A DNA stretch of 26,232 nt from Cyanobacteria bacterium UBA11367 (GCA_003501765.1 DNOY01000251.1:4146-30377); one strand, 5' to 3'. Shown: positions 105-26,172, numbered from the stretch's first letter. A program made the numbers and translations. Notes: generated by a model not told the origin, from the sequence alone.

Positions 105-125
105 ATTAGTCATTAGCCATTAGCA
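105..125. repeat. STRR-like heptamer tandem repeat (ATTAGTC/ATTAGCC, 3 units)
   Basis: The sequence is attagtc attagcc attagca. It overlaps the last codons (LMAND-stop) of the minus-strand aminotransferase. The same CATTAGC heptamer recurs at 19810-19830. Confidence 0.6.
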
Positions 126-1299
126 CTTCCACCAACTTATCAATATCTTCAAAATTGCTAAAATAATGAAGGCAAGCACGAATGCAATCTGGATCCCGGA
201 GAGTGCGCAACAAAAAGCCTTGTTCCTCCAAAGATTTGACTAATTGATGAGATGATTTGCCATTAGTTAAGACAAAGGAAACTAGGCCAGATTGGGGTGG
301 TGAAGTTAATAAACAGCGGACTGATTTTACCTCAGATAAACGCTGCCACAGATACTTACTCAGTTGACAAATTTGCTGGTAACGAGCTTCTCCAGTGCCC
401 CATGATTGATGAAGTGCGATTGCGGCTTGCACTCCCTTATACAAAGGATAGGCTGAAGTCGCCACTTCAAAACGTCGGGCATCAGGTTGCCAACCAATCG
501 GTTGTCCGACTTTATCTACAATAATACCGCGCCAACCAATAAAGGTAGGATTAAGTTCTTCTAGTACTTCAGGTTTGATATACAAACCACCAATGCCTCC
601 TGGTCCGCACCACCATTTGTGACATGTAAAAGCATAGAAATCTACTTCTAATTCTGTTAAGTTTAATGGCAAAAGTCCGACAGATTGGGCTGCATCCACT
701 AAAATTTTTACAGGTTGACTATGAGGAGAGTAATCGCGACAAGCTTTGACTATTTCTGCTAATGGTAAAACTTGTCCTGTATTCCATAAAACATGACTCA
801 ATACTACTAATTTGGTGCTAGGTTGGAGATGTTGGAGAATGACTTCTGTGGGATTTCCTTCATTCAAAGTTGCCATAATTGGACAAAAAGAGAATTCCAC
901 TTCAAACCGTTGTGCAATTTCTTGGACTGTGGCAATGATACCAGGATGTTCGCAATCAGTGAGGAGAATGCGATCGCCTTTTTGCCAGTTAATTCCCCAC
1001 AAGGCAATATTACAGCCAACTGTGACATCTTCGGTGAGGGCGATTGTTTCTTTGGATACTCCTATTTCTGAGGCAATTGCACCTCGGGTAAGATTAGCTT
1101 CTGCGATTACCCAATCATTTACTTTACCAGAGAAAGGTCCGGCTTCCTGAATATAGTGATAGGCTTTTTGAATAGCGGTGATAGATTCTTGTGGTAGAGG
1201 ACCTTGACCGCCAAAATTAAAATATCTTTTGTTGGCTAAGGCTGGGAATTTCTGTCGGTATTGGGCAATTGATAGGGATGGATTGGTAATGCTCGTCAT
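106..1299 (-). CDS. Class V (fold-type I) PLP-dependent aminotransferase / cysteine-desulfurase-family enzyme
   Basis: The track gives ORF 106..1359, which starts on TTG. The ATG at 1299 (MTSITNPSLSIAQYRQKFPAL) is the more plausible start. Class-V signatures present are 'YFNFGGQGPLP', 'LSHVLWNTGQVLPL' and 'FTCHKWWCGPGGIGGLYIKPE', with the PLP-lysine-type HK motif. The stop is TAA at 106-108. Confidence 0.8.
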   Translation of the reverse strand: MTSITNPSLSIAQYRQKFPALANKRYFNFGGQGPLPQESITAIQKAYHYIQEAGPFSGKVNDWVIAEANLTRGAIASEIGVSKETIALTEDVTVGCNIALWGINWQKGDRILLTDCEHPGIIATVQEIAQRFEVEFSFCPIMATLNEGNPTEVILQHLQPSTKLVVLSHVLWNTGQVLPLAEIVKACRDYSPHSQPVKILVDAAQSVGLLPLNLTELEVDFYAFTCHKWWCGPGGIGGLYIKPEVLEELNPTFIGWRGIIVDKVGQPIGWQPDARRFEVATSAYPLYKGVQAAIALHQSWGTGEARYQQICQLSKYLWQRLSEVKSVRCLLTSPPQSGLVSFVLTNGKSSHQLVKSLEEQGFLLRTLRDPDCIRACLHYFSNFEDIDKLVEVLMAND

Positions 1300-1717
1300 G
1301 GCAGTAATTGGGAAGATATAGCAATCCTTATTTTGCACTAAATATTGGTCAATCTCCAATTCTGTATTCCTGAGAGCCTAAAGTTATATAAAATACTCAG
1401 TATCTGGAACCGATCGCATTTATAAATTGAAACCCAGGATCTATTTCTCGAAGGCATGAGGGGTCATACCCCTCTTGTGTCATAAATAATTAACTGATAT
1501 TAAATACTTATTAAGTGCAGGAGCTTTTCGTTAGCTGTGCCATTATTACCTGTTAGATATAGAAAGCTAATCAGGTGGAAAAAAGAGATAGAGTTTTCAG
1601 CATTTTTGGCTATTTCAGATTAAGTTTTGTCACCTAATTTTTTGGTCGTATTCCGGTACGTCCACTAGATTACTATCGGTAAATGAGAAAAGTTTTTCTG
1701 AATTGGAGTAAGTGCTT

Positions 1718-2494
1718 ATGAATCGAGAGCAATTCTATGCAACCATGGCAGGGAAAGGGACATTAGATTACGAAATCTACCTCAATACTCAAACCCTTCT
1801 CTCATGTCAAAAAGATTTTGACGATTTTTGTAACCAAGATGAACTTCAGTTTCAGATAGTCCATCAGTCTGAAGAACTTTGGATGAAACTAATCGCCTAT
1901 ACTCTCCTTAACATTGATGAGTATATACAAGATGAGAAAACAAATCTGGTATTAACTCTCTTCAATCGAGTTCATCGGATTCAAAAAATATTAATCGATC
2001 AATTGCCAATCCTGGAAACAATGTCACCCAAGGATTACCAAGAAATTCGTGCCAACTTAGGCAATGGTAGCGGACAGGAATCTCCAGGTTTTCGTACTTT
2101 AATGAAAATGTACAAACCTCTCTGGCAATCCTTTAAAACCTGTTACTTAGATCGACACCAATTGAATTTAGAGCAAATTTACAATACTGAGTATTCCCAT
2201 TGTGATGCTTACATGGTTGCCGAATCATTAGCTGAATATGATGAGTTATTCCAAAAATTCCGATACTATCATATTCAGCTTATTTATCGTACCATTGGGA
2301 TGGGTGCAAATTCTCTCAAAGGACGTTCAGTAGAGCTATTGAGAGAAGGAATGCAGAGTAAATTTTTCCCTGAACTTTGGGAAATTAGACATAAAATGAC
2401 CAATAATTGGGGTAAAGAATACGGTCAAATTAGAGATTCTCTCGGTCAAAATTTAGAAACATCCCAGCAAGAAAAAGTAATGGTTGAAGTGTGA
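1718..2494 (+). CDS. kynA: Tryptophan 2,3-dioxygenase
   Basis: The translation carries the TDO hallmarks 'LDYEIYLNTQTLLSCQ' and 'ELQFQIVHQSEELWMKL', matching the bacterial KynA pattern 'LxYxxYLxLdxLLsaQ...hDExlFIvxHQxxELWxKL'. The track ORF starts at GTG 1712. A GGAG at 1705-1708 sits 9 nt before the ATG at 1718, so I prefer 1718. Confidence 0.8.
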   Translation: MNREQFYATMAGKGTLDYEIYLNTQTLLSCQKDFDDFCNQDELQFQIVHQSEELWMKLIAYTLLNIDEYIQDEKTNLVLTLFNRVHRIQKILIDQLPILETMSPKDYQEIRANLGNGSGQESPGFRTLMKMYKPLWQSFKTCYLDRHQLNLEQIYNTEYSHCDAYMVAESLAEYDELFQKFRYYHIQLIYRTIGMGANSLKGRSVELLREGMQSKFFPELWEIRHKMTNNWGKEYGQIRDSLGQNLETSQQEKVMVEV

Positions 2495-3627
2495 ATAAAC
2501 AGGATTTTTTCATTCCCAATGGCATCTATCTCTTAAATCATTCCGTAGGATGTCTCCCGCGCACAACTGCCTTCGCGAAGGAAGAGTTTTTCGAGATGTG
2601 GAAATTGAAAGGGGGTGAAGCGTGGGGAGAATGGCTGAGTTTGCTAGACGGATTTTGCCACTCTCTTGCCACATTACTCAATGGACATCCCGATGAGTTT
2701 TGCCCCCAGACTAATTTGTCTTCAGCTATCTCGAAAATTTTGCTGTCTCTTCCTCTCCGTCGAGACAGAAATAAAATCTTAATTTCTGAAATGGATTTTC
2801 CCTCAATGGGATTTGCTATTTCTCAGATGAAAAGAATGGGATATCAGCTTGAAGTAATCCCTGCAAAAAATGGCAGGTTGTCTCTGGAAAGCTGGAAAAA
2901 GTATCTCAAACCAGATGTGGAATTGGCATTGATTACCCATGTTATTTATGGGAATAGTTTCCTCAATCGTGTCCAAGATATCCTTGACTATGCCAAGGCA
3001 GAAGGAATTATTACGGTGGTGGATATTGCCCAATCGGTTGGGGTTGTACCTATTAATCTCCGGCAATGGAATGGAGACTTTGTAATTGGTTCCTGTATTA
3101 AGTGGTTATGTGGGGGAGCAGGTGCAGGATTTATGTGGGTAAATTCTGAGAAAGTTACCAATTTTCAACCGATGGATGTAGGGTGGTTTTCTCATGAAAA
3201 TCCCTTTGAATTTGAGATTGATAATTTTCGCTATGCCCAAACTGCGAAACGGTTTTGGGGTGGTACTCCTTCTGTTTTACCTTTTGCGATCGCGAAATTA
3301 AGTATTGATACAATCAATCGTATCAGTGTCAATCGCATCCGACAACACAACCAAAGGCTAACACAACGTCTGATTGAGGTGGCTGTGGCGCAAAACTTGA
3401 AAGTCTTGACTCCTTTAGATTCTAGCCAACGTGGGGGGACAGTTGTAATTGCGTTTCCCAATCCCATGGAGGCTTATCAAAGATTCAAGGAAGCAAACAT
3501 TCTTATAGATATGAGACCTAATTTTGGTCTCCGCTTCTCGCCTCACATCTATAATGATGAGGCAGAAATCGATCGAATTCTTGATTTGCTAACCAGCGAT
3601 TGCCACTTATTACCAATTGCGTCCTAA
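2491..3627 (+). CDS. kynU: Kynureninase (class V PLP fold)
   Basis: The GTG start overlaps the kynA stop as 'GTGA' at 2491-2494, a translational-coupling arrangement. 'GIYLLNHSVGCLP', 'ITHVIYGNSF...VDIAQSVGVVPINL', 'GSCIKWLCGGAGAGFMWV' and 'VGWFSH' align with the kynureninase motifs 'VIYLDGNSLG', 'THVNYKTG', 'GCTYKYLNGGPGSQAFVWV' and 'SGWFGH', as recalled from memory. Confidence 0.75.
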   Translation: MNKQDFFIPNGIYLLNHSVGCLPRTTAFAKEEFFEMWKLKGGEAWGEWLSLLDGFCHSLATLLNGHPDEFCPQTNLSSAISKILLSLPLRRDRNKILISEMDFPSMGFAISQMKRMGYQLEVIPAKNGRLSLESWKKYLKPDVELALITHVIYGNSFLNRVQDILDYAKAEGIITVVDIAQSVGVVPINLRQWNGDFVIGSCIKWLCGGAGAGFMWVNSEKVTNFQPMDVGWFSHENPFEFEIDNFRYAQTAKRFWGGTPSVLPFAIAKLSIDTINRISVNRIRQHNQRLTQRLIEVAVAQNLKVLTPLDSSQRGGTVVIAFPNPMEAYQRFKEANILIDMRPNFGLRFSPHIYNDEAEIDRILDLLTSDCHLLPIAS

Positions 3628-3640
3628 ATCTTTCTTGTTT

Positions 3641-3699
3641 GTAGTAGGCACTTTAGTGCCTCAAAAGCTGATAATGTCAGGCACTAAAGTGCTTACTAC
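3641..3699. terminator. 20-bp inverted repeat (1 G·U/mismatch) with 19-nt spacer between convergent kynU and kinase genes
   Basis: The arms are gtagtaggcactttagtgcc (3641-3660) and ggcactaaagtgcttactac (3680-3699). The inner part ggcactttagtgcc is itself palindromic. No U-tract follows on either strand, so the terminator role is inferred only from its position between two gene ends. Confidence 0.35.
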
Positions 3700-3725
3700 G
3701 AACCTTAACTATCAACTATCAACTA

Positions 3726-19842: not shown

Positions 19843-21369
19843 CTATCTTCCCAAACAACGAATCGCTTCTAACATCCCTTTCGCCTTATTCAGCGTCTCC
19901 TCATATTCCTTTTCTGGGACAGAATCGGCTACTAAACCCGCACCTGCTTGAACTGATACAATATGCTTGCCATCCTCTGTCGGACGAACTACCATAGTCC
20001 GAATTGCGATCGCGCTATTTAACTGTCCTTCAAAATCGTACCACCCATAAACTCCCGAATAAGGCCCTCTCCTTTCTCCTTCCAATTCGTGGATAATTTC
20101 CATAGCTCTAATTTTCGGTGCGCCGCTCACCGTACCTGCGGGAAAACAAGCCTTTAATAAATCCCACGCTGTTTTCCTTTCATCCAATTCTCCCACCACA
20201 TTACTAACAATGTGCATAACATGGGAATATCGCTCTATAACCATTAACTCATCTACTCTCACAGAACCACTTTTACAGACTCGCCCTAAGTCATTGCGCC
20301 CCAAATCTACTAACATAATATGTTCGGCAACTTCTTTGGGATCTGCTAATAATTCTGCCGCTAAAGCTTCATCTTCGCGATAATTTTTCCCCCGCCATCT
20401 TGTCCCGGCGATAGGGCGTAAAATTGCTTGGAGTCCTCCTGAAGGTAACCTATTCGCTTTTACCATCACTTCCGGACTAGAGCCAATAATTTGCCAATCC
20501 CCAAAATTAAAATAAGCCATATATGGGGAAGGATTAATCAATCTGAGGGAACGATAAAGAGCAAAAGGATCTCCCTTATATTCTGCCGCCAAACGCTGAG
20601 AAATAACCACCTGAAAAATATCGCCAGCGCGGATATAATCTTTAGCTTTTTGGACATTAGCACAGAATTGGGTAGCTTCCGTATTGCTAGTATAAGCTAA
20701 TTTCTGACTTGTACTATCTGGCGGGATCCATTCCAAAACCGTATCTCTACCAGATAGAGGTAACTGAAGCTTGTGTACTAATGCGCGAATGCGATCGCAA
20801 GCTGTCTGATATACTTGCTCCAAATCTACAGTAGCATCCCGCAAATCCGCATAAACCACCGCCCAAATCTTCCGTTTCACCTGATCGAAAATAATCAGAT
20901 TATCCACCTGCATCCATATCCCATCCGGCAAATCATTATCTCCTACCGGATAAACAGGTACTCTAGACTCAATCCACCGAATTAACTCATAACCCCAAAA
21001 CCCAAACAAACCACCAATTCCTGGCGGTAACTGAGGCAACTTAACTGGCTTAATCGGTTGCAAACAATTAGCCAAAGCCTGAAAAGGATTACCTTCAAAT
21101 ATAGTAACCGAACCATCCCGATGAGTTTGAGTAGTGCGATTATCTTTAGCTGACAATACCCACAAAGGATCGCAGCTTAATAAACTATAACGTCCCACAT
21201 TTTCCCCACCTTCCACCGATTCCAGGAGAAAGCTGTAAGGTTGTCCCGCACAAATTTTATACCAAGCCGATACAGGGGTTTCCAAATCCGCCACCCACTC
21301 TTGGTATACCGGGATAAAATTTCCCTCTTGCGACAATTGACGAAATTGAGAAAAATCTGGAGAAATCAT
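19843..21369 (-). CDS. trpE: Anthranilate synthase component I
   Basis: The translation is a chorismate-binding enzyme with 'LLESVEGGENVGRYS', 'GDIFQVVISQR', 'PSPYMAYFNFGDWQIIGSSPE' and 'GAGLVADSVPEKEYEET'. The start is ATG at 21369. Confidence 0.9.
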   Translation of the reverse strand: MISPDFSQFRQLSQEGNFIPVYQEWVADLETPVSAWYKICAGQPYSFLLESVEGGENVGRYSLLSCDPLWVLSAKDNRTTQTHRDGSVTIFEGNPFQALANCLQPIKPVKLPQLPPGIGGLFGFWGYELIRWIESRVPVYPVGDNDLPDGIWMQVDNLIIFDQVKRKIWAVVYADLRDATVDLEQVYQTACDRIRALVHKLQLPLSGRDTVLEWIPPDSTSQKLAYTSNTEATQFCANVQKAKDYIRAGDIFQVVISQRLAAEYKGDPFALYRSLRLINPSPYMAYFNFGDWQIIGSSPEVMVKANRLPSGGLQAILRPIAGTRWRGKNYREDEALAAELLADPKEVAEHIMLVDLGRNDLGRVCKSGSVRVDELMVIERYSHVMHIVSNVVGELDERKTAWDLLKACFPAGTVSGAPKIRAMEIIHELEGERRGPYSGVYGWYDFEGQLNSAIAIRTMVVRPTEDGKHIVSVQAGAGLVADSVPEKEYEETLNKAKGMLEAIRCLGR

Positions 21370-24653: not shown

Positions 24654-25121
24654 TTACAAAAACCGACTTAAATCAAAATCACCTTCAGAGACTTCTTCGT
24701 TCAATCTTTGATTACTCAAAATCAACAAAAGCCGTTCTGTATAGTCTACAGCGCCCACAAACTCATCTCGCAAAATCTCCAATCCCCCATTGGCATACTC
24801 TTCAAAAATATGAATCCTTTCCTCCTCAGCGCGAGCGTCAAAAGCAGAAAGTATTTTGGCTTCCTTCTTTTGTGCGATCGCTAATAACTTCATGATGACA
24901 TCATATCCCCTAGAAACAAAGATCTCTAAGGCAATCGGCCCAGGTTCCCTTTTGGCAACGATTCCCAGAGGCGATCGCTTTTTCTTTTTTGCCCCCATTG
25001 CGGCAGCAAAGGCGATCGCGTCTGCGTAGGTTTGAAATGGTCCAGTTGTCTCTGCTGAGGCGACTAGGGCTTTCACTAAATCTGCTTTATCTTTCGCTAC
25101 CCTAATTCTGTTTCCACTCAT
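24654..25121 (-). CDS. Hypothetical protein (Lys-rich central patch), unrecognised family
   Basis: The track ORF runs 24654..25181 with a TTG start. I prefer the ATG at 25119-25121 (MSGNRIRVAKDKADL...). Codon use is consistent and the reading frame stays open. I recognise no motif. Confidence 0.5.
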   Translation of the reverse strand: MSGNRIRVAKDKADLVKALVASAETTGPFQTYADAIAFAAAMGAKKKKRSPLGIVAKREPGPIALEIFVSRGYDVIMKLLAIAQKKEAKILSAFDARAEEERIHIFEEYANGGLEILRDEFVGAVDYTERLLLILSNQRLNEEVSEGDFDLSRFL

Positions 25122-25260
25122 TATCTGTTTGACGATATTTACTGATTCTGGTATTAATACTATGTAACTCTGAACTATCAACTGTCAATCATGGGTAGCA
25201 GAGAATAGGAATTGGGGAGTAGGGATTAGGAAAGATTTATTAGCGATTAATAACTAGCAC

Positions 25261-25302: not shown

Positions 25303-26172
25303 ATGTCTAAACTCGATACCATACTCAAATTTATTGACCAAATTGAATCTGAAAATCCTGGCGCTTCAGCTTATGAAATTGCCAATAAACTCCGGGGATA
25401 TACAAAAAGAAATTACACCACTCAGCTATGGAGTATCGCCACTGGATATGAGCAGGAATATATTGAAGGAGAATGGGCGGGAAAACTTAATATCGAAGAC
25501 TTGAGTTTAAGTGGAGAAATTACTGACTTAGGTCATTTAATTGCATCTCTTTCCGATCGAATTAACCAACCGGGACTGCAATTATCAGACTTGACAAAAT
25601 GGACAGGAGATCATACCTCTTGGGCTGGAGATATTGGTTCGGCAATTATGATTTATCGGGCTAACTCAGATACGAAAGAAATTCAAACATTAGGAGAATC
25701 CCTCAACCGCTTGGCTGGATTTTCAGACTATACTGCTGATATTGCTGCTTGTGTTATTGGGGCAACTATTAATTATGGCAAGTACGGTTTGATTTCTCAA
25801 GCAATTTATCAATATAATCTGATTCCATATAGACAGCATGTTAGGACGTTTATTCAAAATGAGCTTGGTGGCATTATTCAAGGTAATAAACTAAATAATC
25901 CTGCTGAAATTGAAGCGAATATAGCTCAAGCTGTCTTAGCTTGTATTGGTTTATCTACAGCGCCAGATTGGGTGAAGTCTTTCAAGGATTTATCTGGATT
26001 AAACTTAAAAAAGATGTCAGGCACTAATCGAACAGATATTCTCCAGGCTTCCCTGCACTTCCTCGCTCATTTGGTCAAGATGGGTGGTTTAGAATCCTTG
26101 AAATTTAAACCTTATCGGATGGCAGGAATTCGTTGGTTGGGAAATCTAAGTCAGGAGGTAATTGTCAGTTAG
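25303..26172 (+). CDS. Hypothetical protein, unrecognised family
   Basis: A 289-aa ORF with an ATG start. It is divergent from the 24654-25121 gene, and both are flanked by heptamer arrays. I recognise no motif. Confidence 0.5.
   Translation: MSKLDTILKFIDQIESENPGASAYEIANKLRGYTKRNYTTQLWSIATGYEQEYIEGEWAGKLNIEDLSLSGEITDLGHLIASLSDRINQPGLQLSDLTKWTGDHTSWAGDIGSAIMIYRANSDTKEIQTLGESLNRLAGFSDYTADIAACVIGATINYGKYGLISQAIYQYNLIPYRQHVRTFIQNELGGIIQGNKLNNPAEIEANIAQAVLACIGLSTAPDWVKSFKDLSGLNLKKMSGTNRTDILQASLHFLAHLVKMGGLESLKFKPYRMAGIRWLGNLSQEVIVS

Follow-up and report, generated by a model that had tools for sequence, protein, structure and literature searches.

A putative kynurenine-pathway operon composed of divergent short forms of tryptophan 2,3-dioxygenase and kynureninase in a cyanobacterium

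The genes of kynureninase and/or formamidase usually adjoin kynA, the gene of tryptophan 2,3-dioxygenase (TDO) (PMC4646340). In canonical operons kynA also precedes kynU, the two genes overlapping by 4 nt in some cases, and there are kynA-kynU pairs that have no kynB beside them, a Bradyrhizobium pair with a 4-nt overlap being an example. Canonical bacterial KynA (the Xanthomonas campestris enzyme xcTDO, 2nw7; NCBIfam model TIGR03036) is about 280-300 amino acids (aa) long, and canonical KynU (the Pseudomonas fluorescens enzyme, 1qz9; TIGR01814) about 400-415 aa. Here we describe a pair of overlapping genes, arranged like these, in a stretch of 26,232 nucleotides from Cyanobacteria bacterium UBA11367 (GCA_003501765.1 DNOY01000251.1:4146-30377; the whole stretch is called the window below). 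We consider it likely that the pair is an operon for the anthranilate branch of the kynurenine pathway, in which both enzymes are represented by divergent short forms, of about 245-258 aa in the case of the TDO family and about 370 aa in the case of the family of pyridoxal 5'-phosphate (PLP)-dependent enzymes. The two genes are:

1718..2494, plus strand: short-form tryptophan 2,3-dioxygenase family gene (kynA-like), 258 aa
2491..3627, plus strand: short kynureninase-like class-V PLP gene (kynU-like), 378 aa, GTG start

The GTG start of the kynU-like gene (2491-2493) overlaps the TGA stop of the TDO gene (2492-2494). This GTGA overlap, on which a preliminary description of the same DNA had based its proposal of an operon, is exact and recurs unchanged in two related cyanobacterial contigs, while in Nostocales HT-58-2 the PLP gene begins a few bases past the TDO stop, at an apparent GTG. 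Thus, both reading frames belong to one transcription unit, as shown by the overlap and its conservation in the relatives, and the two genes are probably translationally coupled. The open reading frames (ORFs) are as previously described, but two of the start sites had to be shifted, from 1359 to 1299 in the gene that diverges from the pair and from the mechanical GTG 1712 to the likely ATG 1718 in the TDO gene; the latter start gives the protein of 258 aa, which agrees in length with protein P0001, the identity of the two being 100% over 99% of the query. The cyanobacterial origin, proposed earlier, is confirmed by the presence of psaD in the window and by the 100% identity of a contig of a Coleofasciculaceae metagenome-assembled genome (MAG; locus L005).

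The product of the first gene matches the Trp_dioxygenase family of Pfam (PF03301, 102.4 bits with a cut-off of 34.9), and its best match among the structures of the PDB is xcTDO (2nw7, E 2e-21). Together with its relatives it makes up a tight family of proteins of about 245 aa (245-258 aa), which show 67-86% identity to the window protein, have a mean column identity of 76% across Cyanobacteria, Acidobacteriota and Chloroflexota, and are 25-30% identical to canonical KynA. The residues were mapped by a gap-free alignment to the X. campestris enzyme, invariance being judged in 20 family members and family residues being numbered on the 258-aa protein; the functional roles of the xcTDO residues are given as reviewed in PMC2652831:

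xcTDO His240, proximal heme ligand: H185, invariant in the 20 family members
xcTDO His55, distal histidine: H49, invariant
xcTDO Phe51, indole pocket: F45, invariant
xcTDO Tyr113 and Arg117, carboxylate clamp: Y107 and R111, invariant
xcTDO Tyr24, Tyr27 and Leu28, N-terminal, both tyrosines coming from the adjacent subunit: Y18, Y21 and L22, invariant
xcTDO Thr254, binds the ammonium and carboxylate groups of the substrate: Ser199, invariant, a conservative change

All the heme and substrate residues of xcTDO are therefore kept, the only replacement being that of Thr254 by serine, which supports the assignment of the operon to tryptophan oxidation. The presence of the heme-binding histidine was the point on which the earlier identification of the TDO could have failed; both the proximal and the distal histidine are in place and are invariant in the subfamily. 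As to the differences, canonical KynA has the GTGGSSG loop and Thr254, whereas the short family has the SLKGR motif, serine and an extended, conserved C-terminus.

The second protein matches both Aminotran_5 and KYNU_C of Pfam (the latter with 41.6 bits, the cut-off being 27), and the kynureninase model TIGR01814 is its top NCBIfam match, with a full-length alignment. A profile built from 17 sequences of its family gives 153.7 bits with the P. fluorescens kynureninase (1qz9), 105-108 bits with the human one and at most 94 bits with desulfurases and other non-kynureninases. In a neighbour-joining tree (100 bootstraps, with a small set of outgroups consisting of SufS, C-DES and a Haloferax class-V enzyme) the short PLP family is monophyletic (bootstrap 100) and sister to the canonical kynureninases (bootstrap 99), to which it is 22-29% identical. 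The AlphaFold 2 (AF2) model of the protein (predicted local distance difference test, pLDDT, 90) superimposes on kynureninases with a template-modelling (TM) score of 0.89-0.92 and a root-mean-square deviation of 2.1-2.3 Å, the TM scores with desulfurases being 0.82-0.87. Finally, the catalytic-cysteine loop of SufS (GHHC, 12 residues) is absent from the whole short family, likewise from kynureninases; the window enzyme and canonical KynU thus have in common the fold, the KYNU_C domain and the lack of the desulfurase cysteine loop, and differ in length and in belonging to separate sister clades. Because the profile, the tree, the comparison of structures, the residue map given below and the absence of the SufS loop agree, the window PLP enzyme is, by sequence and predicted structure, grouped with kynureninases as a distinct uncharacterised subfamily. 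The identification as a kynureninase made in the preliminary description, which a phylogenetic grouping with other class-V enzymes would have contradicted, has thereby been upheld.

The residue map of the PLP family, in P. fluorescens numbering and with seven canonical sequences compared, contains the following kept positions: Ser36, Trp64, Trp69, Phe129, Asp201, Lys227, Trp256, His259, Gly281/Thr282, Arg375 and Tyr382. Lys227 forms the Schiff base with PLP, Asp201 lies at the pyridine nitrogen, Arg375 binds the substrate carboxylate, and Phe129 stacks on PLP; their window equivalents (K204, D178, R348 and F103, respectively) are invariant in the family. The equivalents of Trp64 (W45), Gly281/Thr282 (G258/T259), Trp256 (W232) and His259 (H235) are invariant or nearly so, T259 being replaced by serine in one sequence. 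Trp64 and Gly281/Thr282 are shared by the window enzyme and most of the bacterial kynureninases compared, whereas the human enzyme has His and Ser-Asn in these places. The GWFxH and RF..GT motifs of the window enzyme are of the kynureninase type, with the glycine of the GWFGH motif (motif position Gly258) replaced by serine in the family.

These data also bear on a different assignment, in which the PLP enzyme would be a cysteine desulfurase or C-S lyase forming a unit with the C-DES-like gene on the other side of the intergenic region, the TDO-like gene being incidental. SufS-type models are indeed its second-best NCBIfam matches (92 bits), some JGI records call its relatives "selenocysteine lyase/cysteine desulfurase", and the DxAQS motif of the family is common to desulfurases. 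JGI names are inconsistent, and NCBI names the relatives only "aminotransferase class V-fold PLP-dependent enzyme". The GHHC loop is missing, phenylalanine stacks on PLP where desulfurases carry histidine, the GWFxH and RF..GT motifs are present, the tree and the profile place the protein with kynureninases, its partner is almost always of the heme dioxygenase type, and the adjacency to C-DES is limited to the closest relatives. Hence we regard this assignment as highly improbable.

The genomic neighborhoods of the relatives of the PLP enzyme were compared by scanning one genome per species; at least 587 relatives were confirmed, and the best 80 loci of these were examined. In 77 of the 79 loci that could be judged, the PLP gene adjoins a gene of the heme-dioxygenase superfamily, which favors the assignment to the kynurenine pathway. 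The loci were distributed as follows:

25 loci: short TDO directly upstream of the PLP gene (cyanobacteria, Pyrinomonadaceae, Promineifilaceae, Gemmatimonadota, Zooshikella, the Shewanella algae group, Oligoflexia)
52 loci: heme protein of the PrnB family (PF08933) beside the PLP gene (Halieaceae, Cellvibrionaceae, other Shewanella, Endozoicomonas)
2 loci: no complete partner gene beside the PLP gene, one of them with a TDO fragment
1 locus: contig too short to judge

In the marine Gammaproteobacteria of the second group (Shewanella, Halieaceae, Cellvibrionaceae and Endozoicomonas) a PLP gene of the same family (44-50% identity) lies directly downstream of the heme gene, as it does in the window. 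The difference is in the partner, which in these bacteria belongs to the PrnB family and is 390 aa long, and in the AsnC or MarR regulator, which is present at many PrnB-family loci and has no counterpart in the window. The 390-aa partners were found in loci L023-L084 (e.g., L030, 8789-9973, and L051, 8812-9987). This pairing makes it plausible that tryptophan is the substrate of these PrnB-family proteins and that a kynureninase-type cleavage follows; the "IDO-like" proteins in question are not known to have an assigned activity. The S. oneidensis gene SO_4413, a possible member of the short PLP family, is annotated as kynureninase. On a plasmid of Methylocystis iwaonis (L091, 1542-3604) a 283-aa "TDO family protein" abuts a generic class-V enzyme of 403 aa, the position of which in the tree is basal to the canonical kynureninases. 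The "hypothetical protein" encoded upstream of a class-V gene of Bacillus badius was considered as one more partner and rejected, as it is not a relative of TDO.

Further genes accompany the pair, or its TDO gene by itself, in two groups of bacteria. Six loci of Pyrinomonadaceae (L009-L014; e.g., the four-gene cassette of L013, 249-4008) add to the TDO and PLP genes an O-methyltransferase (PF00891) and a cyclase-family, KynB-like protein; the latter has the HxGTHxDxPxH metal motif of the formamidase type and reaches 35.7 bits on the arylformamidase equivalog, the cut-off of which is 223. This gene provides a link of the cassette to formamidase, and the presence of the methyltransferase may mean that the product is a modified kynurenine or anthranilate. 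In the Acidiferrales locus L001 (1339-8738), the short TDO, with no adjacent kynureninase-like gene, stands at the end of a cluster for CoA-dependent degradation of aromatic acids, comprising an enzyme of the bifunctional salicylyl-CoA 5-hydroxylase/oxidoreductase type (NF006101, 1298 bits), a short-chain dehydrogenase/reductase, a MarR regulator, enoyl-CoA hydratase, acyl-CoA dehydrogenase, thioesterase and RidA. 2-Aminobenzoyl-CoA monooxygenase/reductase is another member of the NF006101 family and would be in keeping with a catabolism of anthranilate, to which this cluster provides a link. The assignment of the window operon to the anthranilate branch is supported by both links and by the precedent of the Bradyrhizobium pair.

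The same loci can be read in favor of an altered chemistry serving a specialised product: the heme enzyme might oxidise or rearrange tryptophan or another indole in a PrnB-like manner, or the PLP enzyme might take a modified kynurenine, and the product would go into a secondary metabolite or signal. Both subfamilies are deeply divergent and at the same time internally conserved, as the column identity within the short TDO family illustrates, the PrnB-family partner is found in 52 of the best 80 loci, and the Pyrinomonadaceae clusters contain the O-methyltransferase. On the other hand, the tryptophan-binding and heme residues of the TDO are retained, nothing of the nonribosomal peptide synthetase (NRPS) or polyketide synthase type lies beside the pair in the window or in the other cyanobacterial loci, and the context in Acidiferrales indicates catabolism. 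All this taken together, an altered chemistry of this kind seems to us unlikely.

If the pair indeed belongs to the anthranilate branch, the following sequence of reactions can be proposed. Judging from the conserved residues, the heme protein (1718-2494) would bind L-tryptophan through the same residues as the X. campestris TDO and add O2 across the C2-C3 bond of the indole to give N-formylkynurenine. Loss of the formyl group could be spontaneous or the work of a hydrolase that is unlinked or non-specific. The PLP enzyme (2491-3627), given its family placement, its substrate-side residues and its gene context, would then cleave the Cbeta-Cgamma bond of kynurenine to produce anthranilate and L-alanine, and anthranilate might return to tryptophan synthesis in the host or be released. 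As no genes of downstream pathways are linked to the operon here, its role is likely to be tryptophan turnover or scavenging and not the synthesis of NAD or of a dedicated natural product. The reading frames, their overlap, the conservation of residues and the gene context are matters of observation, and the substrates and products are what we infer.

Several facts weigh against this assignment. The TDO-like protein reaches 125.8 bits on the equivalog model TIGR03036, about a third of the cut-off of 390.7; the substrate loop GTGGSSG of xcTDO is replaced in its family by the invariant SLKGR motif, and about 45 aa in the center of canonical KynA are deleted. Its AF2 model, based on an alignment of 20 sequences of this too uniform family, has a pLDDT of 44 and is too poor to use. 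The PLP protein, in its turn, scores 106.6 bits on TIGR01814, the equivalog cut-off being 246.4. Two residues that are invariant in the seven canonical sequences are lost from its family: Tyr226, which precedes the PLP lysine and matters for catalysis in the P. fluorescens kynureninase, is replaced by Val or Ile, and Asp132 by a hydrophobic residue (Met, Val or Ile). In addition, canonical His204, Asn35 and Asn230 are represented by Gln, His and Cys, respectively. To these may be added the replacements of Tyr228 by Trp and of Pro380 by His, likewise at positions where the seven canonical sequences do not vary; all these replacing residues are in turn conserved in the family, without or almost without exception. 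No gene is assigned to the formamidase step, and none for a formamidase is linked to the pair in the window. Besides, while the pathway itself is already textbook knowledge, this instance is built from two divergent subfamilies, for neither of which, the short TDOs or the short kynureninase-like enzymes, was a characterised member found in our limited literature search. Since both proteins have substitutions at canonically invariant positions, their exact chemistry is proposed, not demonstrated. The preliminary description, whose core, an operon of the kynA-kynU type, has withstood both of the checks directed at its enzyme assignments, had not recognized that the two proteins belong to divergent short subfamilies.

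As for the missing formamidase, the earlier statement that there is no kynB in the window holds: no ORF scanned in the window matches the Pfam Cyclase family, and the metal-binding motif HxG[TS]HxDxPxH does not occur in any frame; the ORF at 25303-26172, which has no family match, could conceivably encode a formamidase of the alpha/beta-hydrolase type. A cassette that is self-sufficient would explain the absence of this gene if the short kynureninase-like enzyme cleaved N-formylkynurenine directly, giving N-formylanthranilate and alanine. Such a conversion of formylkynurenine to formylanthranilate by kynureninase is a recognised option of the pathway (PMC4646340), the unit consists of two bare genes in cyanobacteria and in most of the other phyla, and the active-site substitutions specific to the family could fit the bulkier N-formyl substrate. 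However, the KynB-like gene of the six Pyrinomonadaceae loci implies that the enzyme of those bacteria acts on free kynurenine, and canonical kynA-kynU pairs are often without an adjacent kynB, so its absence says little. Therefore, we find direct cleavage improbable. A broader idea is that the genes form a portable cassette of a heme oxygenase and a C-C hydrolase, in which a short TDO and a PrnB-family protein are interchangeable as the oxygenase, and that the loss of Tyr226 and Asp132 and the SLKGR motif may reflect non-textbook chemistry, for example, formamidase-free cleavage of N-formylkynurenine; we regard this as unlikely. We return below to the two-gene operon for the anthranilate branch.

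Upstream of the operon lies a second class-V gene, transcribed in the opposite direction, and two elements with dyad symmetry accompany the genes:

106..1299, minus strand: class-V PLP gene (C-DES-like), 397 aa from the likely ATG 1299 (mechanical ORF 106..1359)
1300..1717: intergenic DNA separating the C-DES gene from the TDO operon, presumably with both promoters and the 5' leader of the operon
1458..1474: GC-rich hairpin or palindrome with the arms GAGGGG and CCCCTC around TCATA, extendable to 1455-1477 with one mismatch
3637..3703: 25-nt inverted repeat, 92% complementary, with a 17-nt spacer, situated where the kynU-like and histidine-kinase genes converge

The start of the divergent gene at ATG 1299 agrees with the gene call in the related contig L086 and with the alignment to C-DES. 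Its product is aligned over its full length (residues 16-391 to 9-383) with the Synechocystis C-DES (PDB 1elq/1n2t; 467.8 bits, E 2e-139), with no difference noted, and is by sequence an ortholog of this cyanobacterial L-cysteine/cystine C-S lyase. The gene adjoins the TDO-PLP pair only in the closest relative, L086; it is not beside the pair in the Nostocales and unclassified cyanobacterial MAG loci (L006-L008) or in other phyla. Thus, a second class-V enzyme does diverge from the operon, as was previously described, whereas a functional link of it to the pair is not borne out, and a functional three-gene unit was rejected in view of the orthology to C-DES and the lack of conserved synteny. 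We treat the C-DES gene as a housekeeping bystander that has no evident tie to tryptophan catabolism.

The intergenic region is 352 bp long when measured between the mechanical ORFs and 418 bp with the likely starts. Several of its blocks, including the 60 nt ahead of the TDO start, are conserved in the contigs L085 and L086, the coding regions of the three contigs being about 85% identical. The last 60-80 nt or so before the TDO start (1640-1717), including TTGGTCGTATT..GGTACGTCCA and AAGTTTTTCTGAATTGGAG, are nearly invariant in the three contigs, and this stretch may be a leader or a regulatory site. A scan with the sigma-70 consensus gave no promoter-like site in the intergenic region, and a search of Rfam gave nothing meaningful for the 441-bp intergenic region. 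The hairpin with a 6-bp stem reported earlier in the shared promoter region, GAGGGGTCATACCCCTC, is exact at 1458-1474 and is the sole such site in the window, with 0.01 expected; its fold has a z-score of -3.3, calculated for a region picked after the fact. Its stems are invariant in the window, L085 and L086, and its loop varies (TCATA, TAATA, TATTA), with no compensatory changes. The hairpin may serve as an operator, as an RNA stem or as an insulator. A peptide gene over the hairpin was considered and rejected, because the small ORFs of the window have no conserved counterparts in L086. As to the inverted repeat that follows the operon, its core, AGGCACTTTAGTGCCT, forms a palindrome of its own and occurs nowhere else in the window; the repeat is probably a terminator of the operon, perhaps a bidirectional one, or a stem-loop.

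The remainder of the window offers little that could be connected with the operon. The biosynthetic trpE noted in the preliminary description is present on the minus strand at 19843-21369 (TIGR00564, 524.6 bits, cut-off 517.7), but it lies 16 kb away from the operon, on the opposite strand, next to psaD, and there is nothing to connect the two. The suggested use of anthranilate or kynurenine for a secondary metabolite finds no support either: the window has no secondary-metabolite genes able to use these compounds, and no formamidase, kynurenine 3-monooxygenase, NRPS or anthranilate-CoA ligase could be recognised in it. An AMP-binding protein encoded near trpE was considered as a candidate for the last of these activities and turned out to be a generic acyl-CoA synthetase, not identifiable as an anthranilate-CoA ligase. 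Four other genes deserve mention in their own right:

8848-11493, minus strand: 881-aa protein with the complete Major Vault Protein (MVP) architecture (Vault repeats, Vault_2/3/4, MVP shoulder; Vault E-value 2.6e-68); a full-length homolog of the vault protein is unusual for a cyanobacterial genome
13589-16621, plus strand: 1010-aa protein with the odd combination of an N-terminal PlsY-type glycerol-3-phosphate acyltransferase, PPDK_N and the phosphoenolpyruvate-utilising mobile domain
24654-25181, minus strand: DNA phosphorothioation-associated protein 4 (TIGR04062, 192.8 bits)
25303-26172, plus strand, next to the phosphorothioation gene: 289-aa protein, no Pfam or NCBIfam match

With regard to the distribution of the operon, only four of the best 80 loci (out of at least 587) are cyanobacterial, and these four are the most similar to the window, the next being those of Acidobacteriota, with about 58% identity. 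Therefore, judging by the genomes compared, this variant of the cassette is rare and patchy in cyanobacteria; it is known so far from a Coleofasciculaceae MAG, from a few Nostocales and from one unclassified MAG. The fact that the closest non-cyanobacterial relatives occur in Acidobacteriota and Chloroflexota suggests that the operon may have been acquired horizontally long ago. The composition gives no hint of a recent transfer, since the operon, with a GC content of 0.37-0.40, does not stand out from the rest of the window. Our limited literature search on cyanobacterial kynureninase or TDO and on PrnB-kynureninase pairs yielded nothing specific.

Should the assignment be right, a small set of cyanobacteria would be able to degrade tryptophan oxidatively to anthranilate and alanine, a capacity rarely considered for cyanobacteria as a phylum, and this would be of relevance to nitrogen recycling, to metabolites derived from kynurenine or anthranilate and to genome-scale metabolic models. 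Were the idea of a portable cassette true, its characterisation would in addition give a function to the PrnB-family partners in many marine bacteria. As the PLP relative is encoded in the genomes of at least 587 species, a single enzymatic characterisation would correct many annotations, and it would show whether the invariant substitutions in the active site alter the chemistry of the enzyme.

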